Origin: a candidate division FCPU426 bacterium
GTDB lineage: Bacteria; Oederibacteriota; Muellerivitia; Muellerivitales; Muellerivitaceae
NCBI GenBank assembly: GCA_963738405.1
Contig: CAVTWJ010000014.1
Coordinates: forward strand, 32,001-96,000
Reading direction: 5' to 3'
Length of the DNA: 64,000 bases
The notes under the pieces were generated by a model. The model saw only the letters and a program-made list of their open reading frames with translations. It was not told the DNA's origin and ran no database searches. Position 1 is the stretch's first letter, and every line of letters begins with the position of its first letter. The translations under genes were made by a program, and so were the position numbers. Positions 20,355 to 59,617 of this stretch are shown here, one piece after another.

Positions 20355-20924
20355 TTATTTCTTTTGGACATCCGCCTCGCTGAAAACTTGTGCCTCAAAG
20401 GCGGACAATTCAGCCTTATCGCGCCAGGAATCCTGCGGCAAGCCCGCCTTCACGCAGGTTTGAGATAAAAAAGTTTCCCGGTCCATGTGGTGCTCCACCG
20501 CCACTTGCGGCAACAAAAGCCCGGACCGGTTGCCCTTGCTGATGATGAGTCCGTGCACCCCGATCTTCACTTTTTCCGGATCGATTTTTTGGGGAATTGT
20601 CAGCACCGAAATCTCGATGCCGAGGGCGGAAAATTCTTCCTGAACCACCGGCGGAAACCTCGGGTCTTGAAAGGCCGCGCTGGTGGCCGCCTCTTGGACC
20701 GCTTCTACCAAGGGCTTGATGGGATAGGGCAAACCGATACAGCCCCGCAAACCATCTTCAGACCAGAGGGTCACAAAAACTCCCCGCTTTTCCCGAAGGA
20801 TGGGAGAAAGGGCATCCACCGGGGGAAGGCGCCTTCCCCTTTGCAAGGTGGTTCGAATGGCGTTTCGGGCCAGTTGCAGAAGAAATTTCTGCTCTTCAAT
20901 GCCCAGAACCTCGGAAGGTTTCAC
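20355..20924 (-). CDS. amrA: AMMECR1 domain protein (AmmeMemoRadiSam protein A)
   Basis: GVFVTL, LRGCIG, DPRF, EISVL, GLLLPQVA, CVKAGL. Confidence 0.93.
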   Translation of the reverse strand: MKPSEVLGIEEQKFLLQLARNAIRTTLQRGRRLPPVDALSPILREKRGVFVTLWSEDGLRGCIGLPYPIKPLVEAVQEAATSAAFQDPRFPPVVQEEFSALGIEISVLTIPQKIDPEKVKIGVHGLIISKGNRSGLLLPQVAVEHHMDRETFLSQTCVKAGLPQDSWRDKAELSAFEAQVFSEADVQKK

Positions 20925-21655
20925 CAGCCGCTCCTAGCAGTATTTTTAATGTTTAATAATTCAGCCGCCTCAAAAATCAAATCACCGACTTTTTTCCTTT
21001 TCAATTCCGTCACAACAAATGGAATAATTTTATGATCTTTTCTTTGAGCTAATCCAACTATGGCTTCACACTTCGTATCGTAATCAGAATCTTTAACTCG
21101 TTTCCATAAGGCTTTTCTTATTCTCGGATTATCTTTTTCATTAAGAGTTCCTATTGAAAACGTGGCCCAATCCCGTATCTTTGCTGTTCTATCGGCAGAT
21201 AACTTGGTAAGCAAATCAAGGGATTTTTGATTTTTATTCGAACCCAAGCCATAAGTGGCAGCCCAACGAACATCAGAATCAGTACTTTCGCTCAATGTTT
21301 TAAGAATAGGAAAACCTTCCTTGATTTCTAAATAACCTAATGCAACAGCAATAGCATTTAGAACTTTATTTGATTTTTCCTTCTTGAAGGTTTCATTAAT
21401 TACCTTAAATCTTTCAACTAAATACTGCCGCTTTTTCACTCCTAATTGACTAAGAATGTCGATTCCGAGGACACGCTCACGCACTGTTTTTCCGAAACAT
21501 AATGCCTTGGCAGATTTGAATACTTCACGACCACCTCTAAAATGAAGCTTGACCACATATTTCCAAGATGCTTTTTCATCTTTTTCTTTCAACGCTAAAT
21601 GGACTAATTGTTTTGTTGAACGTTGATCTTTATATGATTTTTTTCGTCGTGCCAT
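20921..21655 (-). CDS. HEAT-repeat protein, YibA-like; AT-rich
   Basis: LHFRGG, VRWAATYGLG, IRDWATFSIG, EAIVGLAQRKD repeats. Confidence 0.8.
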   Translation of the reverse strand: MARRKKSYKDQRSTKQLVHLALKEKDEKASWKYVVKLHFRGGREVFKSAKALCFGKTVRERVLGIDILSQLGVKKRQYLVERFKVINETFKKEKSNKVLNAIAVALGYLEIKEGFPILKTLSESTDSDVRWAATYGLGSNKNQKSLDLLTKLSADRTAKIRDWATFSIGTLNEKDNPRIRKALWKRVKDSDYDTKCEAIVGLAQRKDHKIIPFVVTELKRKKVGDLIFEAAELLNIKNTARSGW

Positions 21656-21701
21656 TCCTTACCTTCTACCTTGTGTTTGGTGTTGAATATTTTGTTGTCT
21701 T

Positions 21702-22535
21702 TCACCTGCAAAAAGCCACGGACGAATATCCCACCACCCGGTCCATGTCGCCCGTCACATCGCCCGAATTGCGGTAGCAAAGAAGCTCCGCCTTCGCCCC
21801 AAGCTCCTCGGCCCATTTCACCAGGGTCGTAACCGGTTCTTTACCGCAATGGGTGCAATGGTAATCCGAATATCCACTTCCCATGATTTCCTTGTCGGTC
21901 TTTTCTATTTTCTTCTCGTCACCGGTCAAAAGAGCGTCCAGGAACTTGCGGTCCGCCTTTTGGGCTGTGGAGTAATCGGGATAATGTGATAAATCGGACG
22001 AAGCCACAAGGATGAAAGGTTTTTCCTTGGCCAGCCGCTTCAGCCCCTTCAAAAGGGGTTCCACGCAGGCGGTCTTTCCCTGCCCCATGATCACCGGCAC
22101 CACCTTGGCGCCCGGCAAAAAGGTTTGAATGAAGGGGAAATGGACTTCTACTGAATGTTCCTTAACGTAGGCGGGGGGAAAGTCGATCACCTGGTCGTCC
22201 TCTTCCAAAATCCGGCAGGCTTCCTGATCCACTGGCAGTTCCCCCAGCGGGGTCATGACCGCTTCCCCCGAAAAAAGGGCGCATCCTTTAAAGGATAGGT
22301 AGTGGCTTGGGCCTGCCACCACCACGGTAGAAGGATTGAAGGAAGCCAGGGCCCGGTAACCCAATGCCGCTACCGCCCCCGAATAAACGTAACCGGCGTG
22401 GGGCAAAAGAAAACCAATGGGTTCTCCCGGCAATTCCGTGGCTTTCCCCTCTTCCCTAAATCCATCAAGCAATCGTTGAAGAATGGGAGCTTTACCGGGA
22501 TAAAAGGTTCCGGCGACGACCGGTTGAAGTTTCAT
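21702..22535 (-). CDS. amrB: MEMO1 family protein (AmmeMemoRadiSam protein B)
   Basis: VAGTFYP, PHAGYVYSG, GPSH, EHSVEV, SSDLSHY, VVGY. Confidence 0.94.
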   Translation of the reverse strand: MKLQPVVAGTFYPGKAPILQRLLDGFREEGKATELPGEPIGFLLPHAGYVYSGAVAALGYRALASFNPSTVVVAGPSHYLSFKGCALFSGEAVMTPLGELPVDQEACRILEEDDQVIDFPPAYVKEHSVEVHFPFIQTFLPGAKVVPVIMGQGKTACVEPLLKGLKRLAKEKPFILVASSDLSHYPDYSTAQKADRKFLDALLTGDEKKIEKTDKEIMGSGYSDYHCTHCGKEPVTTLVKWAEELGAKAELLCYRNSGDVTGDMDRVVGYSSVAFCR

Positions 22536-26680: not shown

Positions 26681-27886
26681 TCAAGGGTTAATTAGCCTTT
26701 TGTAGTCGTCAGACGAATCAAAATCCTTGAATTGGGTATCCATCTTAATTTCTTGACGATATTTCGGATCAATATCGATTGTTTTTTGGACTTCCTCGAT
26801 CGCTTCTGTATGTTGGCCATTGGCCCAATAAGCCAATGCGAGGTTGTAATGTCCCATGGCATAATCCGGTTTTACTGCTATTGATTTTCCTAGTGTTTGA
26901 ATAGCCTCGTCGTATTTTTTCAACCGAAAGAAGGCATAACCCATCAATTCATAAGCCCTACAATTATTCGCATCCACATCAATGGCCTTTTGATATTCTG
27001 AAATTGCCTTCCCGAATTGTTTCTTTTTAGCTAATTTCTCCCCCGCGAAAAGGGGATTCTCCTTACCCGCTGTGAGTGTCTCATTCAACACTTGTATGCA
27101 AATCCAACCTGACGCGCTGCCCGAGGGGTAAACCATTTTTGCGGTTTTCTTGTCGTCTCCGGCTTGGTTTGTACAAGTGACATAAACCAAGCGACCCCCA
27201 TGAATAACCTTGGTCTCACAATTCGAAGTATCCATTTGATCGTTAGCAAAATCTTCACCCATAGCCAATTGCGCTTCATATTCCGCACTATCTCGGTAAG
27301 GTTGATGACCCCCGCCCATTGGAAACTCGGAATCAAAAGTAATATCATCGACCTTTAATGAGCCATCTTCCTCGTCAAGGGTGATAAAACCATAAAAAAT
27401 CCGGGCGCTAGCACCTGTCGTTTCGGGTGGGGTGCCGCCAAGGAACAACCCTTTGTTCATTGGTTCCTCACCAACAAGAACACTTATCTCAAAAAACACC
27501 CGTTTTCGATTTGGAACTTCATTTGAATCGCCGGTATTATTCGCGGAATAAAGTTGAAGAAGTTTAAAATCCCCTTCATTGCCGAATGACTCAAGGTATT
27601 TCTCTGGTGTAATTTTGGACAAGTAACTCTTCGAAAGATAAGTTACGCTTTTATCTAAATTACCGCTGCCTTCCCCAATCGTACCCATGTTGGTAAACAT
27701 ATTCGAGGTACAGATAAGATCCATGAATTCTTTTGCCATTTTCGTTTCCGGGTTTTGTTCCTCATCCAAGAGGGGAAATGATTCAGTTTGTTTTGCTTCG
27801 AGTAGATGGCTTCTTTTCGCCAAACAAAAACTCGGGCTCAAACAAAAGCCGACAACGCAAATAATCCATAACCAGGATAATTTCAA
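26681..27886 (-). CDS. Secreted protein with C-terminal TPR repeats; AT-rich
   Basis: Signal peptide; TPR patterns AISEYQKAI, AYELMGYAF, GHYNLALAY. Confidence 0.85.
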   Translation of the reverse strand: MKLSWLWIICVVGFCLSPSFCLAKRSHLLEAKQTESFPLLDEEQNPETKMAKEFMDLICTSNMFTNMGTIGEGSGNLDKSVTYLSKSYLSKITPEKYLESFGNEGDFKLLQLYSANNTGDSNEVPNRKRVFFEISVLVGEEPMNKGLFLGGTPPETTGASARIFYGFITLDEEDGSLKVDDITFDSEFPMGGGHQPYRDSAEYEAQLAMGEDFANDQMDTSNCETKVIHGGRLVYVTCTNQAGDDKKTAKMVYPSGSASGWICIQVLNETLTAGKENPLFAGEKLAKKKQFGKAISEYQKAIDVDANNCRAYELMGYAFFRLKKYDEAIQTLGKSIAVKPDYAMGHYNLALAYWANGQHTEAIEEVQKTIDIDPKYRQEIKMDTQFKDFDSSDDYKRLINP

Positions 27887-28063: not shown

Positions 28064-29668
28064 TCAGGCCTCTTCCACAAAATATTCCTCAGGTTCGTTT
28101 CCATCCCAAACCCAATCCACCAACTTCTCCATTTCATCTACCCACATCTCATTCGCGATGGCCACATTGACCACCCGCTCAACGATCTTTTGGGTTTCTT
28201 CAAGGTCTTTGGAGAGCTTATCGAGGCGTTTCAACGGAATAGCTTGCCATTCCGTAAACCGATAGCCCCCGTTATCCGTCCTTCCCTCATGGCAGTTACG
28301 AATGCTTTCAATGATCGCGATTCTGGTGTCTTTATTCAGCAGTTTAAATGCCGGATATACTTCTTTCGCCAATACGGGATCCAATTCCAACTTGATCGCC
28401 TTTTCGGCCACGGTCCCCTTCGGATCAAGCCCTAAAAGCCTTTCCAAAGCCCAGTAACCTTCAATCCAGGTACTGCATTTGGTTAGCCGATCAAGTTCGT
28501 TGAGAACCTTTATGGCTTCCCAAACATCGATGGTGGGGAAAACTGCGGCTGCTATCGTCGGCCGACCCAGTCGTTTGGCCGCTTCAAGTACGAGCGGGTC
28601 GTCAAACACCTCGTAATCATGGGCAGGATCGGCCTCCTTTTCCTCCTCTGAGAGGGTTCGAACCAGGATCTCCCTTTCGTAACTAGTTGCCTGCATGGAA
28701 AGGACCTTCCGCTGAAGTTCTTCAGGGGTAAAGTCCTTGTAGGGAGTGTAGGGATTTACGCTGACACGCGAGGTGTCGATTCTTATGTGTTTAACTTGGT
28801 CATATTTCTTTATTCCAGGAACAAACCCCTTCGGGGCTTTACCCTTGGGTTCCTTGACTGTTTCGTAATCCTCCAGCCGATTCCCCTCCTTGACCCATTT
28901 GACCAACCCTTTGGCCTGGGCTTCGGTCATTTGCACCTTCCGGGCTAGGCTCAACGCCCTGGCGATGAGGTCCCGGTCTTCCGGGGAGGTTTTGGAGACC
29001 CCGTCCAGCCCCAGCATGGCGTAGGCGACTTTCTCTGGAAAATCCCACAAATTCGCATCTGTTATGCCTGGTTCATAAGGTGTTTCGTTTCTAAGGGTTT
29101 TTGGGGCATTCACGGGAACCCCATAAATGGCCTCTTTGGCCTTGTCATTCAAGAAATCCATCAGCCTTAGTATTCGGCTAACGGTTGTCTGGTCTATTCC
29201 TAGTTGGGCCGCTATCTTCTCCTGGCTAACGCCCGGTTGGAACCGTTGGATGTCCTCTATGCCTTGGTACCGGTCCAGCCAATGAGGGTTCTCTTCCTCG
29301 TTATCCATGAATGCTTCCAAAAGAATCTGGGCTGGCGTGAGGTCGTAATCCAGGGCATCCAGGGTCGCCCAACCGAGCCGCTGGGCCGCCTCAAGCCTTA
29401 AATGGCCGCCTACGACCCCATGCTCATAGGGGCAGACACCCCCTAGGTCTTTGGCGATCTCAGCCTTTTCGGCCTCGGAAAGGGTCCAGGTCTTGATGGG
29501 CGTTTTTTGGCCAATTGACCGCATGGAATTCATCTTGGCCTCGACAGCGCCGGGCTTTTTGAACTTGCGGGGGTTCTTGGGGTTGGGCCAGAGTTTCCCG
29601 ATGGGGATTCTCATGAACCGGGGGGTGGGACGGTTCTCAGATGGATTGGCAGACGTTTCAACGGACAT
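28064..29668 (-). CDS. ParB/Srx-domain protein with an internal tandem duplication
   Basis: PNPKNPRK, GGHLRLEAA and HTH SQEKIAAQLGIDQTTVSR; second homologous half; GGAGG RBS. Confidence 0.85.
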   Translation of the reverse strand: MSVETSANPSENRPTPRFMRIPIGKLWPNPKNPRKFKKPGAVEAKMNSMRSIGQKTPIKTWTLSEAEKAEIAKDLGGVCPYEHGVVGGHLRLEAAQRLGWATLDALDYDLTPAQILLEAFMDNEEENPHWLDRYQGIEDIQRFQPGVSQEKIAAQLGIDQTTVSRILRLMDFLNDKAKEAIYGVPVNAPKTLRNETPYEPGITDANLWDFPEKVAYAMLGLDGVSKTSPEDRDLIARALSLARKVQMTEAQAKGLVKWVKEGNRLEDYETVKEPKGKAPKGFVPGIKKYDQVKHIRIDTSRVSVNPYTPYKDFTPEELQRKVLSMQATSYEREILVRTLSEEEKEADPAHDYEVFDDPLVLEAAKRLGRPTIAAAVFPTIDVWEAIKVLNELDRLTKCSTWIEGYWALERLLGLDPKGTVAEKAIKLELDPVLAKEVYPAFKLLNKDTRIAIIESIRNCHEGRTDNGGYRFTEWQAIPLKRLDKLSKDLEETQKIVERVVNVAIANEMWVDEMEKLVDWVWDGNEPEEYFVEEA

Positions 29669-29798
29669 GAGGACACCTCCCAAATGAATTGAATGCTCCC
29701 CTTGTTTTGGGAATCGTAATTTTAGTTTTTATTCATTTCAAGAAAAAAGCGGGAGGTAGATCAGTTTCACAAGGACAGAAAAGCAACAGTTTTTTCGA

Positions 29799-30092
29799 TT
29801 AGGCGGGTTTGGCCAAGATAGGCTTCTTCTTGTGATGAATTTTCTGAGCTTGGGACAAATCATAATTCTTTTGGAGATTCAGCCACAGATCGGGAGTTGT
29901 TCCCAAAACATCCGCTAAGGAAAGGGCGGCTTCGGGGGTAACCCCCCTTCTCCCGTGGATAATTTCGTTCACCTTGGCATGTGACCACCCCAGGTGCAGA
30001 GCGAAAGCGTTTTGGGAAACGCCCATAGGTTTCAGGAAATCTTCGCTCAAAATTTCACCAGGATGGGTTGGGAGCTTCGATTTCGTTAACAT
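29799..30092 (-). CDS. higA: HigA-family addiction module antitoxin
   Basis: THPGEILSEDFL, VNEIIHGRRGVT, WLNLQ..YDL. Confidence 0.93.
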   Translation of the reverse strand: MLTKSKLPTHPGEILSEDFLKPMGVSQNAFALHLGWSHAKVNEIIHGRRGVTPEAALSLADVLGTTPDLWLNLQKNYDLSQAQKIHHKKKPILAKPA

Positions 30093-30133
30093 TTCGTTTT
30101 TCTCCAATAGAGAGACACTGCTTTCATTCCATT

Positions 30134-30565
30134 TCAAAGCCCTAACTTTTTAAGAAGCTGGGCCGTCGTGTACCATTCGACACCGGTTCCTTCAAAATCG
30201 CCGTCGTTGGACCATAGGGGTATTTCCAATTCTAAAGCCAAGGCCAATAAATCCACATCGTCGGGGTCTCTTTTTCCAATTTTCCGCCGGGCAATTGCCA
30301 ACGAACCCTGATATTCCCTTAAGTTAAATTCCCGGACAGCCAAAAGTTGAAACTGGCTTTCCAAAAGTTCCACGGCCATTTCATATTTCTCGGCCATGAC
30401 CGGAAGGTATTCCCGTACTTCTTTGATGTTTAAGGATGTTGAAACGACTTCGAGGGAGGATTGTTTAAAGACTTTAAGAGCGGCACGGCCTACGACAGCG
30501 GACAGAAGGACGTTAGCGTCCGCCGCGATTCGACCGGCGGCCTTTTCTCCATTTTTCAAAATCAT
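30134..30565 (-). CDS. PIN-domain toxin; start codon uncertain
   Basis: ADANVLLSA, RDPDDVDLLALA, LWSNDGDF. Confidence 0.9.
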   Translation of the reverse strand: MILKNGEKAAGRIAADANVLLSAVVGRAALKVFKQSSLEVVSTSLNIKEVREYLPVMAEKYEMAVELLESQFQLLAVREFNLREYQGSLAIARRKIGKRDPDDVDLLALALELEIPLWSNDGDFEGTGVEWYTTAQLLKKLGL

Positions 30566-35888: not shown

Positions 35889-36602
35889 ATGAAATGCCCC
35901 GAATGCGATTTGGAACAGCCGGAAAATACGGCCGTTTGCCCCAGCTGCGGTTTGAATTTCGCCATGTGGCGGGCCCATACCGGTGAACCTTTAACGCCGA
36001 CACCCATTCCGGAGGAAGAACCCGCCACTAGCGGGGAGGATAGGAGCCAGGCCGCATCCGAGGAGGAATCCCATCCCGAGGCCGAATCCAGCCCCGAAGA
36101 CCCCCCCGCGGAGGAGGTCCTCGACTCTTCTGCTAAACCCAAGGCTTTTAAATGGAGCCCTCTTTATTCCTTAGGCATCGGCCTATTGATCGCTTTGATA
36201 CTGGGAGTTTTCATTTTCTCCCGCCGCTCCCATAACCCCCTACCCAATCCCGCAAATGTGATCCCGGCCCCAACGGCACTATCCACTCCCGGCGATGCCA
36301 CCCCCATGAATTCGCTAATGGCCACCGGCACTCCAGGCCAAGCCGTGGATTCACCGACCCCTGAAAGCACCTCAACCCCCACTGAAATTCCTAAACCGAA
36401 AGAACCCACCGCCACCCCAGTTCCCCCGGTGGAATCTTCCTCATTGCCAAGCACTCCCACCGAAGCCCCATCACCTGTTCCAGCGGTTAATACGGCCGTA
36501 CCTGAGCCGGCAACCCCCACCCAAGCCTCCGGTCATAGCGACTTGCTTGAATCTTCGGGAGGACTCACCCTTTCCCTCCCGACCGCCATTCCAACCCCCT
36601 AG
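35889..36602 (+). CDS. Zinc-ribbon, single-TM protein with a Pro/Thr-rich tail
   Basis: CPEC..CPSC, acidic linker, one TM helix, PT-rich C-terminus. Confidence 0.75.
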   Translation: MKCPECDLEQPENTAVCPSCGLNFAMWRAHTGEPLTPTPIPEEEPATSGEDRSQAASEEESHPEAESSPEDPPAEEVLDSSAKPKAFKWSPLYSLGIGLLIALILGVFIFSRRSHNPLPNPANVIPAPTALSTPGDATPMNSLMATGTPGQAVDSPTPESTSTPTEIPKPKEPTATPVPPVESSSLPSTPTEAPSPVPAVNTAVPEPATPTQASGHSDLLESSGGLTLSLPTAIPTP

Positions 36603-39226: not shown

Positions 39227-41035
39227 TCAGTCGCCCTTATCCAGGTAAAAACGCAGGCCGAGGCCCACTTCAATGCCTGAATAGTCGATGGCGGCTTGGC
39301 TTCCGTCGGCGTTGAGGAGGGGCGAGGGAAAGTTAATCGCGCTTCCCGTGGTCACATTGGTCGCAAGGTTCGTAAAACGAAGGAACCGGTAGTCGAATCC
39401 CAGGTCGAATGATGTGGATTTGGAGCTATCGACGAAAAACTCGAAATCGGCGCCCGCTACCGCCCCGAAGCTGGAGCTGGAGGCGTCCATGTTTTCGGTG
39501 ACCCCTCCTCCTGCGACCGTAACGCCGGCCCCCGCGAGGAAATAATAACCGCCCGAGAGGGAAAGGTCGAAATTGGTTCCCTCATCCAGCGGAATAAGGA
39601 GCTTGGCGTGAAGGGCCGGGCCCAGCACCGCGCTGTTCCACATTTGGGTGACGCCCGCCTGCTCCACGTTTTCAACCGTCTTGCGTAAAAACTCGGCCTC
39701 CACACCGATTTGAATCGTCGGGTCCAGCGCCAAATCCGCGGCGAAATTAAACCCGAAGCCGAAGGGGAAACTTTGGTTGGAATTCACGCTCGAACCGTAA
39801 TAATCGCTCAAGTCGGTTGTGTTGTAATTGATCGCGTTGAATTTAGCCGTCAAGGTCCAGCTATCCGCGTCAGGCAAAGTGGGATATTCGGTCATGGGCG
39901 GCAGGTCCGAATCCTCTTCGGTGGAAGCCTCGGAGGCTACGGTGGCGGGAGAGCTTTCCCCGGCCGCGGGTAGGGCGGCGGTTTTAGACGCGGGAGTCGT
40001 CCCCGCAGTGGAAGGGGCGGCGGGAGAAGCCGGTTTGGGTTTAAACACGACCACCTTGCCGTCTTCCATAATGTAGGCCTTGGCTTTCAATTGATCGATC
40101 CACTGCTCAATAGCGTCCGACTGGCCGGTTTTTTGAAGATGTTCCTTGATACTGGAGGCCACGGAAGCGAAATCAGCCGGCCCCTTGGATTCCAGCCTCA
40201 CGACATAAATGCCCTCGGCGCCGTTGACGATTCCCAGGCCCTTGACCCTCATGGCGAAAATTCCATTGGCCAGTTCCGGATCCAAATCGGAACGGTAAAC
40301 GGTTCCGACTTCCCCGCCGTTATCCCGGGTGCCCGAATCCTCGGAGTATTTTTTCGCCTCGGACGCGAAATCCGCGCCCTTCTTCAAGTCGGCCAAAACC
40401 GCCTGGGCTTGTTTTTCGGCCCCGGCCCGTTTGGAGGCGGAGGCTTTCGAGTCCGCGTTGAAAAGAATGATGGAAAATTTGGCCTGTTCGTAATCTTGCG
40501 GGTGCTTTTGGTAGTAATCCGCGACCTGCTGGTCCGTGACCACGGCGGTGGAGGGAAGCTCTTCCTGTTTAAAATGAAGAACGCGTCCAGCCTTGATGCG
40601 CCGAAGCATTCTTTCACGCGTGTCTTCTTTCAGGTCGTCCAGGGTGATGCCTTCCTTGGTCAATCCCGCCTGGAATTCCTCGTCGGTGGCGAAGTTGCGC
40701 TTCATTCCCTCGATTTCCTGGTTCACCTGGGCTTCCACGTCGCTGTCGGAAATTTCCATTTTTTCACGGTCCGCTTCCTCGGCCAGAACCACTTCTTGAA
40801 TGAAATTATCCTCCACCTGCTTTTTGGCATCCAGATAGGCGGGGCTGCCGGCGGACGGGGTTTTATCCCCTTTGACCGCAAAAAAAGCGTCGATGGACTC
40901 TTCCAACTCGCCTTGGGTGAGGGAATCCTGGTCCACCACCAGCGTTATTTGATCCACCGTTTCCGCCATCACAAATCGCGGAAAAAACAATACCGTTCCC
41001 ATCGCCCAAAGACCTGCCCATATCCATTTATTCAT
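39227..41035 (-). CDS. SurA N-domain plus parvulin, fused to a C-terminal outer-membrane beta-barrel
   Basis: Signal peptide, ETVDQITLVVD SurA start, FASEAKKYSED..GG parvulin, Ala/Pro/Ser linker, eight amphipathic strands ending GLGLRFY. Confidence 0.85.
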   Translation of the reverse strand: MNKWIWAGLWAMGTVLFFPRFVMAETVDQITLVVDQDSLTQGELEESIDAFFAVKGDKTPSAGSPAYLDAKKQVEDNFIQEVVLAEEADREKMEISDSDVEAQVNQEIEGMKRNFATDEEFQAGLTKEGITLDDLKEDTRERMLRRIKAGRVLHFKQEELPSTAVVTDQQVADYYQKHPQDYEQAKFSIILFNADSKASASKRAGAEKQAQAVLADLKKGADFASEAKKYSEDSGTRDNGGEVGTVYRSDLDPELANGIFAMRVKGLGIVNGAEGIYVVRLESKGPADFASVASSIKEHLQKTGQSDAIEQWIDQLKAKAYIMEDGKVVVFKPKPASPAAPSTAGTTPASKTAALPAAGESSPATVASEASTEEDSDLPPMTEYPTLPDADSWTLTAKFNAINYNTTDLSDYYGSSVNSNQSFPFGFGFNFAADLALDPTIQIGVEAEFLRKTVENVEQAGVTQMWNSAVLGPALHAKLLIPLDEGTNFDLSLSGGYYFLAGAGVTVAGGGVTENMDASSSSFGAVAGADFEFFVDSSKSTSFDLGFDYRFLRFTNLATNVTTGSAINFPSPLLNADGSQAAIDYSGIEVGLGLRFYLDKGD

Positions 41036-42032
41036 CTCTTAAATCCTCCAGAGTGACCCCGACAATGGGGGCTAAGTCTTGATTCACCTTGATCACGGCA
41101 TTTTTTTTAAGTCCGGCCATCCACTGGTCGAACCTCATATCCTGCTCTTCTTTCATAAGAAAATCATGAATAAGGGGTGCCGCTTCGGCCAGGGTTCGCA
41201 TGCGCCTGGGGCGTTCCTCGATTCTTTGAAACAAATGGTAGCCAAATTCGTCCTTCACCGGTTTGGAAATCTCACCCGCTCCCAGAGCCGTTAAAACGGT
41301 CAGAAAAGCAGCGGGAAGGCGGTCGGTTTGCATCCAGCCCCAATCCCCTCCCTGGGACTTTTCAACCCCCTGGGAGAAGGTCGACGCCACCTTGGCGAAA
41401 TCTTCCCCGCGGCCCAAGCTCAACATGACCTTGTCCAGATCAGCCTTTTTCCTGACCACCAAATGCCGGGCCCGGATCGCGGCAGGGACCCAATAGGCGG
41501 AAAGATGAGACCAGTAATATTCCTCAACCTCGGGGTCCGTCACCTGCACCCGTGAATCCACTTCCTGGGTCACGATCTTCTGGGCCAGTTCTTCCTGGAG
41601 TACCTTGCGTTTCCAGGCTTCCTCGCTGACTCCCTGTGTCTTTAAGAGGGCCCTGTAGTCGTCCGGGATTTCCAGAAGGGCTTTTTGGAAAGCCTCATCC
41701 AGGTCTTTCTGGGTCATCTTCAGGCCCGTCCGCCGGGCCTCTTGCAGCAACAGCTTGCGGTTGATCACCTGTTCGAAAAGCCGGCGCTTGATGGCCCGCA
41801 TGTCGCCTTCGGTCACGGCGCTGTAATGAATTTCCATCAGGCGGAATTCGTTATCGAAAGTTTCCAGGGAGATGGGCTCGCCGTTAACGGTCACCAGGGT
41901 TTTTTCGGGCGGCACCTGGTCGGGTGTTAAATCGACCAGGGGTTCCTTTTGGCAACCGGCCAGAACCGCTAAAATTCCTGCGCTCCAAATCCAGATTCGG
42001 GCCCGGCTTGTCAGCTTTCGATCTTCGATCAT
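41028..42032 (-). CDS. SurA/PrsA-like peptidylprolyl isomerase, putative lipoprotein
   Basis: LAGC lipobox, VTVNGEPI, ARHLVV, GGDWGW, FGYHLF. Confidence 0.88.
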   Translation of the reverse strand: MIEDRKLTSRARIWIWSAGILAVLAGCQKEPLVDLTPDQVPPEKTLVTVNGEPISLETFDNEFRLMEIHYSAVTEGDMRAIKRRLFEQVINRKLLLQEARRTGLKMTQKDLDEAFQKALLEIPDDYRALLKTQGVSEEAWKRKVLQEELAQKIVTQEVDSRVQVTDPEVEEYYWSHLSAYWVPAAIRARHLVVRKKADLDKVMLSLGRGEDFAKVASTFSQGVEKSQGGDWGWMQTDRLPAAFLTVLTALGAGEISKPVKDEFGYHLFQRIEERPRRMRTLAEAAPLIHDFLMKEEQDMRFDQWMAGLKKNAVIKVNQDLAPIVGVTLEDLRDE

Positions 42033-42060: not shown

Positions 42061-42834
42061 CTAGGGCTTGCTATTCGGTTTTGACGCGGGAGAAGCCGAA
42101 GGGGGTTGGCCTAAGGCGCCTTGGTCTTGAAGTAAAGCGCTCGAGGTGGAGAGATTGGTGAGATATTTTTGGATCATATCCTCGTTTTTAACCACCTTGC
42201 TGTCACCCTGGAGCTGGTTCATCAACTTGTCCGCACGAACCCTCAAACGCACTTGATCCCGCACCTTATCGTAGGGCGGCGCCTTCTGCCCGTCTTGTTC
42301 CAATTGTTTGGAATACTTGGCGTAGCGGTCCTTGATCTCCGCCTCGGTCACCGTCACGGTATTAATCTTGCTCGCGGCGAAGGATTGGGCCAGCAGCATT
42401 TGCAGGTAAGAGTCTTTGTATGATTTTTCGAGTCGATTGACCGTTTCCATGTCCTGAACCAGACGGTCCTTGATGTCCTTGATTTGATTGCCCGCTTCCA
42501 GCAGTTTCGTTTTGGAAAGCTCATCAAACTGGGGATCGCTGTAGTGGGCGGCCCGGGCCGCTTCCAAAACCACTTCCTGGTCGATCAGGCTGTCCAATAC
42601 CTCACGCACCGCCTCCGCGTTGTTGGGATCCACGGGCTGGGGGGAGAATACACGCAAGAGGTCCATCTGGTGCATCCAATCGCCGAAGGTGATCTTTTGA
42701 TCCCCTACGGTCGCGACCACTTGGGAATCCGACAGCCCCGACTTGTTGGAGAATTTACTACAGGCCCAGCCGCTCAAAAAAAAGGTTAAGGCGGCGCCAA
42801 GAATAATAAAAAAACGCGCGAGTCGGGAAACCAT
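42061..42834 (-). CDS. SurA N-terminal-domain protein without parvulin, putative lipoprotein
   Basis: LSGWAC possible lipobox, VVATVGDQKIT, VLDSLIDQEVV, VTEAEIK. Confidence 0.75.
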   Translation of the reverse strand: MVSRLARFFIILGAALTFFLSGWACSKFSNKSGLSDSQVVATVGDQKITFGDWMHQMDLLRVFSPQPVDPNNAEAVREVLDSLIDQEVVLEAARAAHYSDPQFDELSKTKLLEAGNQIKDIKDRLVQDMETVNRLEKSYKDSYLQMLLAQSFAASKINTVTVTEAEIKDRYAKYSKQLEQDGQKAPPYDKVRDQVRLRVRADKLMNQLQGDSKVVKNEDMIQKYLTNLSTSSALLQDQGALGQPPSASPASKPNSKP

Positions 42835-43068
42835 GGGAACTCCTTGAGCGGTTTTACTGGGTGAAAGACGGCGTATCGTAACAAATAGGCTTAGGTCCCG
42901 CAATAGCAGGAAGAAAGGGAAGGGAGATTGGCAAAGGCATTTACCCCGAAGACGCAAAACCATGGCAATGCAAATCCATGTGAGAAAAAGATTTTTCCCA
43001 TCGTCTTCGACAAAATTCCCCGATTGAACGGGGATTATTCTGTGACAAAAACTTTTGGCGGATGCCTT

Positions 43069-43409: not shown

Positions 43410-43450
43410 AAAAAAGCCCTGTAGCCTAAAAAGCAAGCTACAGGGCTTTT
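43410..43450 (-). terminator. Terminator after the cold-shock gene
   Basis: AAAAGCCCTGTAGC..GCTACAGGGCTTTT. Confidence 0.85.
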
Positions 43451-53487: not shown

Positions 53488-54918
53488 CTAAACTTGTGTC
53501 AAATCCTTGCCCGCCAAGCGGAGTTTTTCTAAACCTTCGGGGGTTCGGGCCTCCACGTAGCAACGCATGAGCGGTTCGGTACCCGAAAAGCGAACCATCA
53601 ACCATTCTCCGCCGTCCAAGAGAAACTTCACCCCGTCCTTACGGACGATATCAATGACTTTCTTTCCGGCCAGGTCGGTAGGTGGGTTGTCTTTAAGTTT
53701 TGCGGTCATCACTTCTTTCAAACCGTCCTTCAATTTGATGTTGAGCCGATCCGAATAAAAAGCGCCGTATTGCTGGTGAAGTCCCTTTAGAATCGCGGTC
53801 AGAGTCTTGCCTTCTTGGGCAACGACCTCTGCCATTAAAAGGTTCGCAAGTATCCCGTCTTTTTCAGGCACATGTCCGTGAACCGTCAGCCCGCCCGATT
53901 CCTCCCCGCCGATAATGATGGATTCTTGGGACATGATTTCCGCGATGTACTTGAACCCGACGGGCGTTTCTTTTAACTCCACGTTGTTGGCCTTCGCGAT
54001 GGCGTCCATCAAACTGGTAGTGGCGACCGTCCTCACCACACACCCCTTCCAATCGCGTGTCTTCAAAAGGTGGGCGAAAAGAATGGGCAAGACCTGATTA
54101 GGCGTTATAAAAGTTCCATCGGCATCAATTACCCCAAAACGGTCCGCGTCGCCATCGTTGGCGAGTCCCAGATGTGCTGGTAGGGTTTTGACCAAGTTGA
54201 TGGCTTCCTGCAGTTCTTCTTCGCCCGGTTCGGGGTGGTGCCCCGCCCCCCCAAAAAAGGGATCACGGGTATTGTGCATCACCTTGACGTTGACACCCGC
54301 TTCCTGAAGCAAGCTGTCCATATAGCCCAATCCATTGCCATGCATCAGGTCCACCACGATTTTCAGACGAGCCTTACGCAAGGTGTCCATTTGAACTAAT
54401 TGGCGGATCCGCTCAAAGTAGGCGGGCTTGGGATCAATAGGGACCACCAACCCCTTGGATTCGGCCTCGGAATAACTCAGTTCTGGAACCTTGCCTCCCT
54501 GCGTGCCGATGCTTTCTGCCAAGGCTTCCAATTCCAGGGTGACCTGCACGGGTGCCGGACCCCCGTCGGAGCCATTGAACTTGAGCCCCTGATAGGCCGC
54601 GGGATTGTGGCTAGCGGTAAAATTAATGGAACCCGCCGTTTTTCGCCGAACCAGTTCGTAAGAAACCGTCGGGGTGGGGGTGCCTACCGGGCATACGAAG
54701 GAAGTGATCCCGTATCCCGCCAAAACCTTAATCGTTAGCTGTATGAATTCTTCGGTCAGGAAACGATAGTCCCCCGCCACCACCACGCCTTTGGAAGCCT
54801 CACCCGTTTTTTGAAGGTGTTGGGCAATAGCCGCCACCGCAATCTTGACGTTAGCGAAAGTAAAATCTTCCGCAAGGATGGCGCGCCAACCAGAGGTGCC
54901 AAAAGTTATTTTTGCCAT
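53488..54918 (-). CDS. Phosphoglucomutase/phosphomannomutase
   Basis: FGTSGWR, TASHNP, DGDADR, GEESG, RFSGTEP. Confidence 0.95.
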   Translation of the reverse strand: MAKITFGTSGWRAILAEDFTFANVKIAVAAIAQHLQKTGEASKGVVVAGDYRFLTEEFIQLTIKVLAGYGITSFVCPVGTPTPTVSYELVRRKTAGSINFTASHNPAAYQGLKFNGSDGGPAPVQVTLELEALAESIGTQGGKVPELSYSEAESKGLVVPIDPKPAYFERIRQLVQMDTLRKARLKIVVDLMHGNGLGYMDSLLQEAGVNVKVMHNTRDPFFGGAGHHPEPGEEELQEAINLVKTLPAHLGLANDGDADRFGVIDADGTFITPNQVLPILFAHLLKTRDWKGCVVRTVATTSLMDAIAKANNVELKETPVGFKYIAEIMSQESIIIGGEESGGLTVHGHVPEKDGILANLLMAEVVAQEGKTLTAILKGLHQQYGAFYSDRLNIKLKDGLKEVMTAKLKDNPPTDLAGKKVIDIVRKDGVKFLLDGGEWLMVRFSGTEPLMRCYVEARTPEGLEKLRLAGKDLTQV

Positions 54919-54965
54919 GGGGGCTAGTTCCTTAAGGGAATAGGAAGGAGGTGAAAGTGTAAGGA

Positions 54966-54999
54966 AAAAGAAAAAGGGACGCAATGGGTTTGCGCCCCT
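54966..54999 (-). terminator. Terminator-like hairpin between the nucleotidyltransferase and PGM/PMM genes
   Basis: Minus-strand AGGGGCGCAA..TTGCGTCCCT followed by TTTTCTTTT. Confidence 0.65.
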
Positions 55000-55057
55000 G
55001 AATTCTCGTGAAACTAAAATTTCCAACAAGTTGATTTCCAGCTACCTCCTCAATAAA

Positions 55058-57559
55058 TCAACCCTGCCATTTTTTGATCTTGTCCACATAAGAAGAGACT
55101 AGATCTTTCGCCGTTTTCTCCGTCTCCGCCTCAGCGGTCACGTGAAAAAAGGCCAGGTCGGCGTCGGGCAGAATCATGACCGACGACCCGTTTTGGGTGA
55201 TCTTAACCCCGTCAATCAGCTCCCTTTTTAAGTTTTCGGTGTCTTCAATCAAATGCCGCATGATGGTTCCCTTCATTTCCCAAGAACAGGGTACCTTTTG
55301 GCTGACCTCGTGTTTTTTAGGAATCTGGGGGAGATAACTGGAAATGGGCTTATGTTCGAGTGCCAAAAATTCCATCAGTTTGGCGGTGGACATCATGGCG
55401 TCCATGTGGGGAGCGAAAGATGTGAAGATAAAACCCCCATCCGGTTCCCCCACAAGGGAGATACCAGGCTGGGTTGCCGCTTCCATGAGGGAAAAATAGG
55501 TCGTACGGGTGCGCTGGACGCTGCCACCATTTGCCTTGGCCAAGTCATCCAGAACCTGGGAAGCGTTGATAGGAACCACGGTCTTTGCGCCCTTCTGTCG
55601 GTGGTAAATGTAGAGGGAGAAAAGGGCGAGCAGCTCGGTTCCACCCAGCAAGTGTCCTTTTTCATCCACCACGAAAATCTTTTCCGCGCCCGCGTCAAAC
55701 AGGACCCCGAAGTGGGCCTTGAGGGTCGGCACAATGTCGGAAAGCTGCTTCAGGGCGGCCTGAAATTGTTCAGGGGTTTTGGTGAGTTTGGATTCATCCA
55801 TATAGGCGTTCAAAGCCACGACCTCGCAGCCCAATTTCCCCAATAGCCATGGAAAGATGGGCGAAGCCGCAGAGAAAGCGTAGTCAATCACCACCTTGGG
55901 TTTGCAATCAACAATGGATTTCACTTCCAAAGCGTCCAAGAAACCTTGGTGATAAAACTCCAACATACGGTGGGGGAAAACCAGCTCGCCGGTTTCTTCC
56001 ATGGTGGCCCGGCGGAAATCTTCCCGATAAAAAAGATTTTCGATTCCCTTTTCCTTGCCAGAGGAAAGGGCAAGACCCCTGCTGTCAAAAAACTTGATGT
56101 CGATGAACTGCTCGTCAAAGGGGCTCTTTCGGGTATGCAGGCCGCCAGCATCGGAAAGTTTGGGCACGGCGTATCGCGCCACGGGAATCGGCATTTCTTG
56201 AAGGTCATGCACGTTGACGCCTGAGGAAAGGATACCGGAGATGAGAGCCCGGTTGATCATGCGGCTTGTTTTGTGGATGTCCCTGGCAGTCAAAACCGTT
56301 GAGCCCTTTGGCAGGGAGGCCCCATAGGCCGCACCCAACTTGCTGGCGAATTCCGGCGTGATGTCAATGCCAGCCATTCCGGTGACTCCGTGTTGGCCAA
56401 AAATGGAACGGGCCCATTTATCGCCCCAGACGAGGGAGGTGGAAAGTTGCGCCCCATCCTCCACGACCTTATTGGGCCAAACCTTGACGCCCGCCTTGAT
56501 GACCGATTCCTTGCCGATGGTGCAATTATCCGAAACGATCACACCCTCGAAGATGTTGGCTTTTTCTTGTACATCCGTACCTGAAGCAATCACGCATTCT
56601 CGAACCTGGGCCTCAGCCCCAATGGCCACATTGCGCCAAAGGATGGCGTTGGTCAAAACGGCTCCCTCCCCCACCTGGCAGCCGTCGCCTAAAACCGAAT
56701 TGGTGATCTTGGCGTGCTTGGCAACGGTACAATCTTTTCCCACCACCACGGTACCGGTCAGCTGGGCGGTGGAATCAATGGTGCTTTTTTCCCCGGCCCA
56801 AATTTCTTTGCCGACCCGGTTTAAACGCGAACCCTGGATGCTGACATCCACCTTGCCTGCGAAAACATCCTGATGGGCCAAACGGTATTGGTCCAAATTA
56901 CCGATGTCCGCCCAATAGCCTTGGGCCACATAGCCGTAAAGAGGCATGTTTTTTTGGAGCATCAGCGGAAAAAGATTTTTCGAGAAATCGAATTCTTCTT
57001 TCTCAGGGATCAAATCCAAAACTTCCGGCTCAAGAATGTAAATACCGGTATTAACCGTATCGGAAAAAACCTCGCCCCAAGTGGGCTTTTCAAGGAAGCG
57101 CTGGATCTTTCCATCCGGCCCCGTAATGACGACCCCAAAGGCCAGGGGGTTTTCCACCCGGGTAAGGATCATGGTGGCCTGAGCTTTGTTTTTCTCATGA
57201 AAGGCGATGGCCGCGCCCAGATCGAAATCGGTTAATACGTCGCCGGAAATAACCACAAAACGTTCTTTTTCAATCATCGACTGGCAATTTTTGACCGAGC
57301 CCGCCGTGCCCAGGTCGCTTTCGGCGGCTTTGTACTGCATCTTCACCCCAAAGTCGGTACCATCCCGAAAATATTCGGTGATGATCTCCGGTTGGTAAAA
57401 GACCACGCTGATGAGGTCGGTCAGTTTATATTTTTTCAAAAGGTCGACGATGATTTCCATGATAGGCCGATTGACCATAGGGATCATGGGCTTGGGCAGG
57501 TTGATGGTTAGCGGGCGCATGCGGGTTCCAAAACCACCCGCCATAATCACTGCTTTCAT
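55058..57559 (-). CDS. Mannose-1-phosphate guanylyltransferase + hexapeptide repeats + PMM-like domain
   Basis: MAGGFGTRMRPLT..PKP, LGTAG, EKP, left-handed beta-helix repeats, C-terminal phosphomutase fold. Confidence 0.92.
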   Translation of the reverse strand: MKAVIMAGGFGTRMRPLTINLPKPMIPMVNRPIMEIIVDLLKKYKLTDLISVVFYQPEIITEYFRDGTDFGVKMQYKAAESDLGTAGSVKNCQSMIEKERFVVISGDVLTDFDLGAAIAFHEKNKAQATMILTRVENPLAFGVVITGPDGKIQRFLEKPTWGEVFSDTVNTGIYILEPEVLDLIPEKEEFDFSKNLFPLMLQKNMPLYGYVAQGYWADIGNLDQYRLAHQDVFAGKVDVSIQGSRLNRVGKEIWAGEKSTIDSTAQLTGTVVVGKDCTVAKHAKITNSVLGDGCQVGEGAVLTNAILWRNVAIGAEAQVRECVIASGTDVQEKANIFEGVIVSDNCTIGKESVIKAGVKVWPNKVVEDGAQLSTSLVWGDKWARSIFGQHGVTGMAGIDITPEFASKLGAAYGASLPKGSTVLTARDIHKTSRMINRALISGILSSGVNVHDLQEMPIPVARYAVPKLSDAGGLHTRKSPFDEQFIDIKFFDSRGLALSSGKEKGIENLFYREDFRRATMEETGELVFPHRMLEFYHQGFLDALEVKSIVDCKPKVVIDYAFSAASPIFPWLLGKLGCEVVALNAYMDESKLTKTPEQFQAALKQLSDIVPTLKAHFGVLFDAGAEKIFVVDEKGHLLGGTELLALFSLYIYHRQKGAKTVVPINASQVLDDLAKANGGSVQRTRTTYFSLMEAATQPGISLVGEPDGGFIFTSFAPHMDAMMSTAKLMEFLALEHKPISSYLPQIPKKHEVSQKVPCSWEMKGTIMRHLIEDTENLKRELIDGVKITQNGSSVMILPDADLAFFHVTAEAETEKTAKDLVSSYVDKIKKWQG

Positions 57560-57793
57560 TTGGAACCACCTTGGTATTGGCTGTGAGCCCTGGAAGGACG
57601 AACGGTTCATTTTATCCGCTTTCACGGGAAAATTGAACTTCCTCACGAGGGAAACCTTTTCGGCAAAACAAACGAGATTCGTTCAAGCTTGTCCTGTTTT
57701 ATGCGAGAAATGTGGAAAGGAAACTTGCAATTTCACCGCTAAAAACCCATTTTAGGGGTTCGTTTTTACCCAAAACTTAAGGAGTTCCACCCC

Positions 57794-59419: not shown

Positions 59420-59617
59420 ATGGCCATTGGATTTAAGTTTGAATCGAAGATCAAGATCCTCAACCAGTTCACCTATGACGCCATTTCCGATTTACGCGAA
59501 CTGCTTTGGCGTTGCGGGCAATGCGGGCTACTGGCCCACCGCAAGTGCGGCGTTCCGGATTACTGCCCCTCTTGCGCCGCGCCCCACAGGGAATTCGCAC
59601 TTGTGGAAGAAGACTAA
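59420..59617 (+). CDS. Small rubredoxin-like protein
   Basis: WRCGQCG...PDYCPSCAAP..EF; GAGGA RBS. Confidence 0.75.
   Translation: MAIGFKFESKIKILNQFTYDAISDLRELLWRCGQCGLLAHRKCGVPDYCPSCAAPHREFALVEED

Follow-up and report, generated by a model that had tools for sequence, protein, structure and literature searches.

A SurA-like periplasmic chaperone joined through a disordered leash to a predicted eight-stranded outer-membrane β-barrel

How unfolded outer-membrane proteins (OMPs) cross the periplasm to reach the β-barrel assembly machinery (BAM) is debated, free diffusion in the company of SurA being set against envelope-spanning supercomplexes. Among the described SurA-like proteins, PrsA is a lipoprotein tethered on the cytoplasmic membrane of monoderms, most members of which have kept the His pair of the parvulin, both PrsA and PEB4 are dimers, and PpiD is anchored by an N-terminal helix. 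A small barrel joined to a periplasmic domain is known from OmpA, in which a Pro-rich hinge connects the two. Excerpts of the SurA literature state that the chaperone function of this protein needs the N- plus the C-terminal module only and not peptidyl-prolyl isomerase (PPIase) activity, and in PpiD, according to an excerpt of PMC2956729, a chaperone module resembling that of SurA occurs together with a parvulin that has no PPIase activity and with a permanent anchor in the membrane. The recent BAM-SurA structures have, according to excerpts of PMC11366764, needed artificial SurA-OMP fusions and crosslinks to keep their components together. Here, we describe a natural gene of related layout, located at 39227..41035 on the minus strand of a stretch of 64,000 nucleotides from a candidate division FCPU426 bacterium (contig CAVTWJ010000014.1, positions 32,001 to 96,000; hereafter the window, to which all coordinates refer). 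Judged from sequence and predicted structure, the product is rather probably a SurA-like, ATP-independent holdase, for which its own C-terminal eight-stranded barrel would serve as a permanent anchor in the outer membrane; the tethering, the chaperone activity and the dependence on BAM are deduced from this architecture.

Upon translation, the gene has been found to be a single uninterrupted frame of 602 codons, which encodes, in this order, a signal peptide, a SurA_N domain, one parvulin domain, a C-terminal helix, a disordered linker of 54 residues and a C-domain of 219 residues. An initial annotation, made from the letters of the window, had claimed an uninterrupted frame of this length with a signal peptide, a SurA N-domain, a parvulin lacking both usual His residues, the SurA C-helix, a linker of about 60 residues rich in Ala, Pro, Ser and acidic side chains, and eight strands from about residue 393 onwards, and each of these elements has been recovered by the analyses reported below, with a correction to the extent of the last. 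By inspection, the signal peptide is composed of MNK, the hydrophobic stretch WIWAGLWAMGTVLFF and PRFVMA, is followed by ETVD, and appears to be of the signal peptidase I type without a lipobox Cys; throughout the family alignment, an N-terminal hydrophobic stretch and a small-residue site precede a conserved TVD(E/Q)I. The gene call deposited for this protein (P0002) comprises 591 residues, starting 11 codons later. The start of the 602-residue form is nevertheless credible and has been favored, since it is preceded by a Shine-Dalgarno-like GGAGGA and the ATG at 41035 shares an 8-nt overlap with the stop of the upstream 339-residue gene, an overlap because of which translational coupling of the two genes is probable. 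The G+C content across the fusion gene is even (0.50-0.60).

The evidence for a barrel in the C-domain is far beyond chance. Using an alignment of 51 sequences (A2: 50 relatives and the domain of the window) as input, AlphaFold2 (AF2) has returned a model with a mean predicted local distance difference test score (pLDDT) of 94.2, a predicted template-modeling score (pTM) of 0.88 and no segment below 50. A Foldseek search of this model against the PDB has yielded 59 matches at E<=1e-3, all of them, among the matches listed, outer-membrane barrels. The best are eight-stranded, the OmpA transmembrane domain ranking first (1bxw, E 3.6e-9, target-normalized TM-score 0.69), with OmpW, OprG (query-normalized TM-score 0.58), Ail, NspA, OmpX and OprF-N as further matches; across the eight-stranded matches, the TM-scores range from 0.55 to 0.61 by query and from 0.69 to 0.77 by target, and the full-length model has given a target-normalized TM-score of 0.76 to 9fzd_A. 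The ten-stranded OpcA, OmpT and Pla have been found to fit more poorly (query-normalized TM-score 0.30-0.47, root-mean-square deviation 12-16 Å). A profile search of the PDB with A2 has given TPR proteins in all of the 60 rows listed, the TPR columns of the longer relatives having been retained in the profile. Taken together, the model indicates a closed eight-stranded antiparallel barrel, closure being read from the TM-scores and not from coordinates. Homologues are numerous as well: a phmmer search with residues 385-602 against 1.84 billion representative proteins has collected 70 relatives at E<=1e-3, of which 43 reach E<=1e-10, and a protein-atlas feature search has led to OMP β-barrel clusters at 0.96-0.97. 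In the Pfam scans, neither OmpA_membrane nor an OmpA C-like family has been matched. The relative P0069 (E 8.7e-12 to the C-domain) passes the family PF13505, OMP_b-brl, with 42.6 bits at a cut-off of 28.7, and PF13505 is reached at E<=0.1 in 4/22 fused family members, with 2.6e-6 as the best value. Since the protein of the window is itself without a match while its homologue passes, its membership in PF13505 would be one by transitive homology.

The initial annotation had named structure prediction as a check on the C-domain, and AF2 has indeed given an eight-stranded barrel of the OmpA/OmpW/OprG/OmpX kind. The antiparallel strands, as assigned by DSSP on the model, cover residues 393-404, 425-436, 441-459, 462-482, 487-509, 512-534, 541-563 and 587-597. 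Each of the eight strands claimed at the outset falls within one of these, so that their number has stood; their lengths and the domain start near residue 393 have not, the strands being longer and the conserved domain beginning with YPTLP (384-388), a motif that all 22 aligned family members share without variation. The side of the termini shows tight turns of 4, 4 and 6 residues, and the opposite side has loops of 20 (loop 1, with a short helix) and 23 residues. In bacterial OMPs, the short turns usually face the periplasm. Following this topology rule, the short turns on the termini side would place both barrel termini, and hence the leash and the chaperone, in the periplasm. The β-signal consensus reads polar-x-G-x-x-hydrophobic-x-aromatic with a terminal aromatic, and such a terminal aromatic is typical of BAM clients. 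The last strand, E589-V-G-L-G-L-R-F596-Y597, matches this pattern, but 4-9 residues follow it within the family; G591, F596 and Y597 are invariant.

The chaperone half (residues 27-329) has been characterized by sequence and by fold. Pfam SurA_N has been matched at residues 27-144 with 33.8 bits (cut-off 30.8), in line with the SurA N-domain claimed at the outset, and SurA_N_3 with 32.7 bits (cut-off 27.2); the SurA_N domain has been matched in 22/22 family members and is helical in the AF2 model. Only one parvulin domain has been detected by Pfam, Rotamase_3 at residues 175-282, with 62.2 bits at a cut-off of 22.5. When our protein is aligned to E. coli SurA (1m5y) by HMMER, I189 in its SIIL takes the place of the His in SHIL, and Y277 in its GIYVV that of the His in GFHIL/GWHLI, both losses having been noticed from the letters. 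The first position is occupied by I, V, L or M and the second by Y in 35/35 rows of the family alignment. Because both canonical His residues are replaced, the parvulin of the fusion is probably catalytically inactive, though reportedly, in work on Pin1 mutants, the abolition of activity upon loss of the His pair is not absolute. The parvulin is followed in the AF2 model by a helix (289-318) and two short strands (321-324 and 327-329), and the helical segment can be aligned with the C-terminal part of SurA (query 283-298, "wi.qlkakayi" versus "wmqeqrasayv"), in agreement with the C-helix of the initial annotation; residues 290-329 would thus complete a SurA/PrsA chaperone core.

Among PDB sequences, the best match of the chaperone half is E. 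coli SurA (1m5y, E 1.3e-11), and it also matches the PpiD parvulin (2kgj, E 1.5e-7) and PrsA; the PDB entries of engineered SurA-OmpX and SurA-EspP fusions have turned up among the same matches. By fold, the N-terminal half of the full-length model is closest to SurA in the BAM-SurA complex (9hg5_F, E 7.4e-11), with further Foldseek matches to PrsA and to SurA lacking P2 (2pv3; E 2e-10 to 3e-10) and, across the PrsA and PEB4/Cj1289/HP0175-type structures, to 6vj4, 5tvl, 4wo7 and 3rfw (E 2e-10 to 2e-8). With a single parvulin inserted between its N-domain and its C-terminal helix, this half is classified by sequence and model as a single-parvulin SurA-like protein of the PrsA/PpiD/PEB4 grade and not as a two-parvulin SurA of the E. 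coli type.

The two halves are connected by a leash, 70% of which is made up of Ala, Pro, Ser, Thr and Gly and which contains 7 acidic residues, its end being acidic, much as the linker had been described at the outset. In the full-length AF2 model, the pLDDT falls below 50 at residues 334-382. Over 35 alignment rows, the leash varies from 38 to 63 residues, with a mean pairwise identity of 0.21, and because its length has been kept while its sequence has not, it carries the signature of a spacer. We take its reach, as a rough figure from polymer scaling, to be about 5 nm typically and about 20 nm when fully stretched. For comparison, excerpts of PMC11366764 report that barrel folding of an engineered SurA-OmpX fusion stayed incomplete without an extra linker, that a linker of 76 residues was judged necessary in SurA-EspP for the barrel to fold while SurA stays at POTRA-1, and that such engineered SurA-OMP fusions engage BAM. 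The natural leash is of the same order as the engineered linker.

A search of other genomes for the fused architecture had been proposed together with the initial annotation, which would have been contradicted by relatives carrying two separate genes; such relatives have not been seen. A genome scan, reduced to one genome per species, has provided 10 loci, all from uncultured metagenome-assembled genomes (MAGs) deposited under the labels Candidatus Firestonebacteria, "Elusimicrobia", "proteobacterium" and "bacterium". The fusion is one open reading frame (ORF) of 587-624 residues in 8/8 loci that cover the gene (45-78% identity), the 2 further loci being cut by contig ends. Among metagenomic proteins, the C-domain search has returned 25 matches in the band of 331-1054 residues, of which 23 measure 590-621 residues and 24 carry parvulin Pfam domains; the remaining two, of 522 and 344 residues, are contig-end fragments (contigs of 2,218 and 1,038 bp). 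Close barrel relatives in the band of 119-382 residues, as candidates for stand-alone forms, have been rejected, all 5 matches being fragments on contigs of 1,038-1,320 bp. The family alignment has 35 rows, about 31 of them distinct, as L001, L003, L008 and L009 nearly repeat P0005, P0108, P0011 and P0016. Its mean pairwise identity amounts to 0.60 in the N-domain, 0.59 in the parvulin, 0.56 in the C-helix and 0.53 in the barrel, compared with 0.21 in the linker. By this comparison of sequences, the fusion is real and under selection.

The same barrel family has been found attached to other modules. In a Pfam scan of 41 barrel relatives, the five of 587-617 residues all consist of SurA_N, parvulin and barrel. 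The 25 relatives of 312-566 residues comprise 22 with tetratricopeptide repeats (TPRs), which stand before the barrel in 21 and after it in P0089, and 3 without other recognized domains. Nine of the 11 relatives of 229-267 residues have a signal peptide and a barrel only, and the other two are fragment-like. By inspection, the TPR forms run from a signal peptide through 2-4 TPRs and, mostly, a P/S/T/A-rich stretch of about 20-70 residues to the barrel; P0037, P0040, P0041, P0043 and 17 others, of about 330-495 residues, are of this kind. The very C-terminus is RFF or RFY in most TPR-linked and in a few stand-alone relatives. Weak YfiO/BamD Pfam matches have been recorded in two TPR-barrel relatives (E 0.005-0.007, far under the cut-off). 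Since TPR domains, too, are attached to barrels of this family by similar leashes, barrel and leash appear to form a portable unit by which protein-binding modules of the periplasm would be anchored at the outer membrane. The known proteins that combine TPRs with a barrel, i.e., PgaA, BcsC, PelB and Slam, have much larger barrels, and we know of no description of the small TPR-barrel form, at which no literature search was aimed.

Taking these features into account, the following course of events can be proposed for the product. The signal peptide would send it through Sec, after which BAM would insert the C-terminal barrel, with its β-signal-like last strand, in such a way that both termini lie in the periplasm. 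The leash of 38-63 residues would then leave the chaperone module, i.e., SurA_N and C-helix together with the parvulin devoid of both catalytic-site His residues, mobile at a distance of a few nm from the inner face of this membrane, where it may capture unfolded OMPs and keep them concentrated near BAM. The fusion gene comes third in a conserved cluster that encodes three SurA-like paralogues, all predicted to be tethered, and its design would be the outer-membrane counterpart of the inner-membrane PpiD and the lipoprotein PrsA. The tethering of SurA under the outer membrane, as it had been put in the initial annotation, is thus supported as far as the predicted barrel and the leash are concerned, and has to be amended with regard to SurA itself, the tethered half being a single-parvulin SurA-like protein.

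Several observations weigh against an anchored SurA-like chaperone. On the side of the chaperone, the SurA_N score barely exceeds its cut-off, and all NCBIfam SurA/PrsA equivalogs score far under theirs, the SurA equivalog NF008038 (PRK10770) reaching 41.3 bits at a cut-off of 394. On the side of the barrel, no Pfam family has been found on residues 392-602 even at E<=10, NCBIfam has yielded OMP_myx_plus alone (E 0.21), and the other 18 of the 22 fused members stay outside the E<=0.1 range of PF13505. The aromatic RFY is not C-terminal in the fused family, 4-9 residues lying beyond it (LDKGD in the window). The conservation of the barrel comes close to that of the chaperone half, and its long loops contain the invariant residues P572, N575, G578 and D584, so that the barrel may do more than anchor. 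The genes bamA, skp, lol and lpt are absent from the 64-kb window. Concerning the fusion, P0112 (338 residues, 41% identical) ends right after the C-helix and has neither leash nor barrel, the Tyr being kept. Unalignable C-terminal tails occur in P0100, P0101, P0105 and P0111 and are Arg/Pro-rich in the first three; they probably reflect pseudogenes or erroneous indels in a low-complexity, G+C-rich stretch. All four proteins are closely related to the fusion and lie on contigs of 14-279 kb; their frames cease to align with the family inside the parvulin (P0111), the linker or the barrel. P0102, P0103 and P0075 break off inside the linker or barrel, on contigs of 1,355 bp, 2,396 bp and 14.5 kb, respectively. 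A search with the chaperone half alone has returned, beyond P0112 and the proteins just named, identities of <=30%.

The fusion could instead be a fixed accessory subunit of BAM, in which the barrel sits beside BamA and the SurA-like module serves as a permanent substrate receptor, replacing the transient docking of SurA at POTRA-1 and perhaps some of the lipoprotein subunits. A linker held at 38-63 residues, in the same order as the 76 residues reported in the excerpts of PMC11366764, would suit such an arrangement, and so would TPR modules, which have the fold of BamD, on the same barrel family, including the two weak YfiO matches. Those matches are under the cut-off, however, and would be expected for any TPR, and neither bamA nor another BAM gene has been found in the window or in the related loci. 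We regard a fixed subunit as an unlikely reading. We assign a similarly low likelihood to the view that the barrel is the working part, as an OmpW/OprG-like small-molecule channel or a structural OMP, and the SurA-like half its private chaperone or a periplasmic adaptor connecting the outer membrane with a further part of the envelope in the manner of the OmpA C-domain. The barrel identity of 0.53 and the invariant loop residues are in keeping with this view, as are OmpW and OprG among the structural neighbors and the existence of stand-alone barrel members, by which a role of its own is open to the barrel. Yet unrelated modules, SurA-like or TPR, on non-conserved leashes would be expected of an anchor more than of a dedicated partnership, barrels of the stand-alone and TPR-linked kinds fold with no SurA attached, and the chaperone half is conserved at 0.56-0.60 across all its three parts.

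Far less probable is that the C-domain is a soluble β-rich periplasmic domain, lipocalin-like or sandwich-like, which would make the protein a free chaperone with an extra client-binding domain. The lack of a Pfam match for this domain and the predictive nature of AF2 models could be adduced in its favor, but the Foldseek matches at E<=1e-3, among the matches listed, are made up of outer-membrane barrels throughout, relatives pass PF13505, and relatives end in RFF or RFY as BAM clients do. An artefact, i.e., a lost stop, a sequencing error or a misassembly in one contig, to which the frameshift-like tails of P0100, P0101, P0105 and P0111 and the errors that occur in the G+C-rich low-complexity linker region might point, has a negligible probability given the same ORF in 8/8 covering loci and in 23/25 metagenomic proteins, the even G+C content and the confinement of all short barrel forms among close relatives to contigs of 1,038-1,320 bp.

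The fusion gene is part of a conserved neighborhood, in the order mfd, hairpin, a 112-residue ORF, a 300-residue protein with SurA_N only, a 339-residue protein with SurA_N and parvulin, the fusion, and an 87-residue S4 protein (Table 1). Both SurA-like neighbors have been found upstream of the fusion in 10/10 loci, with mfd in all 9 loci that reach that far, and the S4 gene downstream in 8/8 loci extending past the fusion; in spite of this synteny, the S4 neighbor is probably unrelated in function. In the 339-residue neighbor, the lipobox G-C is invariant in 11/11 orthologues, and both parvulin His residues have been kept in 11/11 (RHL, GYHLF). The 300-residue neighbor has a conserved hydrophobic stretch followed by [AG]-C in 11/11 orthologues, and its true start is likely the Met at 42834 (MVSRLARFF...), since most orthologues begin at this position. 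Both upstream neighbors are thus classified as lipoproteins by sequence, and with two predicted lipoproteins and a barrel-anchored fusion, each of the three SurA-like products of the cluster is predicted to be membrane-tethered. The chaperone half of the fusion shares 21% identity with the 339-residue neighbor and 26% over 132 residues with the 300-residue neighbor; an origin by recent tandem duplication has been rejected on these values, and the three paralogues are, by the same comparison, old.

Table 1. Features of the fusion gene and its surroundings (coordinates in the window; residue numbers of the 602-residue product).
Feature	Coordinates	Strand	Evidence
Terminator-like hairpin, 17-bp perfect stem and T run	43412..43450	-	Between mfd (with a 78-residue ORF) and the SurA-like cluster
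Second upstream neighbor, 300 residues, SurA_N-like only, no parvulin	42061..42963	-	Pfam SurA_N_3, 41.9 bits
Upstream neighbor, predicted lipoprotein SurA-like chaperone, 339 residues	41028..42047	-	Pfam SurA_N_3 and Rotamase
Shine-Dalgarno-like GGAGGA	41044..41049	-	Read directly, 8 nt before ATG at 41035
Predicted signal peptide, residues 1-24	40964..41035	-	Inspection of the translation
SurA-like N-terminal chaperone domain, residues 27-165	40541..40957	-	Pfam, AF2, Foldseek
Single PPIC-type parvulin domain, residues 166-289	40169..40540	-	Pfam Rotamase_3, alignment to 1m5y
SurA/PrsA-type C-terminal helix and short strands, residues 290-329	40049..40168	-	AF2, 1m5y alignment
Disordered leash, residues 330-383 (54 residues)	39887..40048	-	AF2 pLDDT, composition
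Predicted C-terminal eight-stranded barrel domain, residues 384-602	39230..39886	-	AF2, Foldseek, phmmer
Downstream neighbor, S4-domain protein, 87 residues	38940..39203	-	Pfam S4, 23.3 bits

Because the hairpin with its T run lies between them, the SurA-like cluster is suggested to be transcribed separately from mfd despite the conserved adjacency. The number of terminator-like sites in the window (11) does not exceed that in shuffles (9.3 +/- 3.1), the 17-bp stem being the one that stands out; a promoter scan of the window has not exceeded its shuffles (2 versus 3.0 expected), and no Rfam match has been found anywhere in it. In a related MAG (locus L007, 1536..5106, plus strand), mfd is split into overlapping ORFs of 722 and 521 residues, through a frameshift or an assembly error. 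With parAB, F1Fo ATP synthase, mfd, tsaBE, argJ, thiL and a dsbD-like gene, the window represents ordinary chromosome. A second barrel of the C-domain family has not been found in the window by a custom hidden Markov model (HMM) run with --max, in which the fusion scores 266 bits and the next protein has E 0.94; a 401-residue TPR protein (26681..27886), considered as a relative of the TPR-linked barrels, has been rejected for lack of a match to the same HMM.

Some further genes of the window have been recorded. The ORF at 35889..36602 (plus strand, 237 residues) carries a CxxC...CxxC zinc-ribbon-like motif at its N-terminus, has a single hydrophobic segment and ends in a long tail rich in Pro, Thr, Ser and Glu; it has matched no NCBIfam family at E<=1e-8. 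At 55058..57646 (minus strand), a fusion of 862 residues joins a sugar-1-phosphate nucleotidylyltransferase, similar to mannose-1-phosphate guanylyltransferase, to a phosphoglucosamine/phosphohexose mutase, and a second, stand-alone mutase gene adjoins it (53488..55029, minus strand). The DsbD-type disulfide reductase at 59614..61401 (minus strand) has the rhodanese/DsbD fusion-like selenoprotein TsoB as its best NCBIfam model, with 435 bits below a cut-off of 805, and also stays under the cut-off of the DsbD subfamily model (298 bits, cut-off 330). In the region 28064..30137 (minus strand), a HigA-family antitoxin (29802..30137, 101.7 bits, cut-off 47.7) adjoins a protein of 539 residues with a weak ParB-like N-terminal domain, and the 143-residue ORF directly upstream on the coding strand (30137..30565) could be, from its position, the toxin partner of the antitoxin. 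Proteins A and B of the AmmeMemoRadiSam system flank a 244-residue "putative lyase" (PRK09687-like) at 20355..22535 (minus strand); among the adjacent ORFs scanned, no radical SAM partner has been seen.

Regarding the wider meaning of the locus, a natural SurA-barrel fusion has not been found in the full-text literature searched, from which subscription journals are largely absent and which does not extend to domain-architecture databases; the initial annotation, likewise, had known of no described precedent, and the engineered SurA-OmpX and SurA-EspP are the only such fusions encountered. In a review of SurA-like proteins (PMC9820271), "anchored" occurs four times, in no case with respect to SurA. 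What would be new is the mode of anchoring by leash and barrel, the SurA-like chaperone itself being known. Members of the family are named "peptidylprolyl isomerase", "parvulin-like PPIase" and "foldase PrsA" in databases, names that need correcting for a parvulin without the His pair and for 219 residues that form an unannotated predicted barrel. If an outer-membrane-anchored SurA-like holdase is indeed encoded, delivery of OMPs can work with a chaperone that is held at the target membrane, a natural and probably stable handle on the hand-over from chaperone to BAM would become available, and the modular barrel anchor, found also on TPR domains, could be borrowed for placing proteins under the outer membrane. 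A bolder extension, which we consider doubtful at present, would be that OMPs are transported in this lineage by a relay of chaperones bound to the two membranes, with both lipoprotein paralogues at one side and the barrel-anchored one beneath the outer membrane, and not by freely diffusing SurA, with the barrel-anchored member possibly being a resident BAM subunit, and that leash and eight-stranded barrel provide a general, lipoprotein-independent way to station periplasmic factors at the outer membrane, be they SurA-like chaperones or TPR/BamD-like adaptors.

Compared with the described systems, the product of the fusion gene shares with E. coli SurA (1m5y, 9hg5, 8pz1) the core of N-domain and C-terminal segment with the parvulin inserted between them; SurA is soluble, however, and has two parvulins, the second of which is active, whereas our protein has one without the His pair, a leash and a predicted barrel. 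PrsA and the PEB4/Cj1289/HP0175-type proteins correspond to it in the layout of N-domain, one parvulin and C-tail, and none of them has a barrel. PpiD of E. coli resembles it in the SurA-like module, the inactive-type parvulin, whose structure (2kgj) is matched at the E-value given above, and the permanent anchor, but that anchor is in the inner membrane next to Sec, whereas the one proposed here is a C-terminal barrel on a leash in the predicted outer membrane location; a C-terminal domain of the PpiD type is not present in our protein. OmpA, OmpW, OprG, OmpX, Ail and NspA (PF13505) share the predicted fold of the C-domain, and in OmpA the barrel comes first and the periplasmic domain binds peptidoglycan, an order that is reversed in the fusion. 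The TPR-leash-barrel relatives (P0037, P0040, P0041) have a barrel of the C-domain family (matching the C-domain at E 1e-29 to 1e-5) and follow the same design of signal peptide, periplasmic protein-binding module, P/S/T/A-rich leash and barrel, with the differences that 2-4 TPRs replace the SurA-like module and that RFF or RFY is the exact end of the barrel. The engineered SurA-OmpX and SurA-EspP fusions (8qpv, 8qp5; excerpts of PMC11366764) are alike in that an OMP barrel, eight-stranded in OmpX, has been joined to the C-terminus of SurA; according to the same excerpts, they are laboratory constructs that trap folding intermediates, whereas the gene described here, whose product presumably works once it has been inserted, is natural and conserved.

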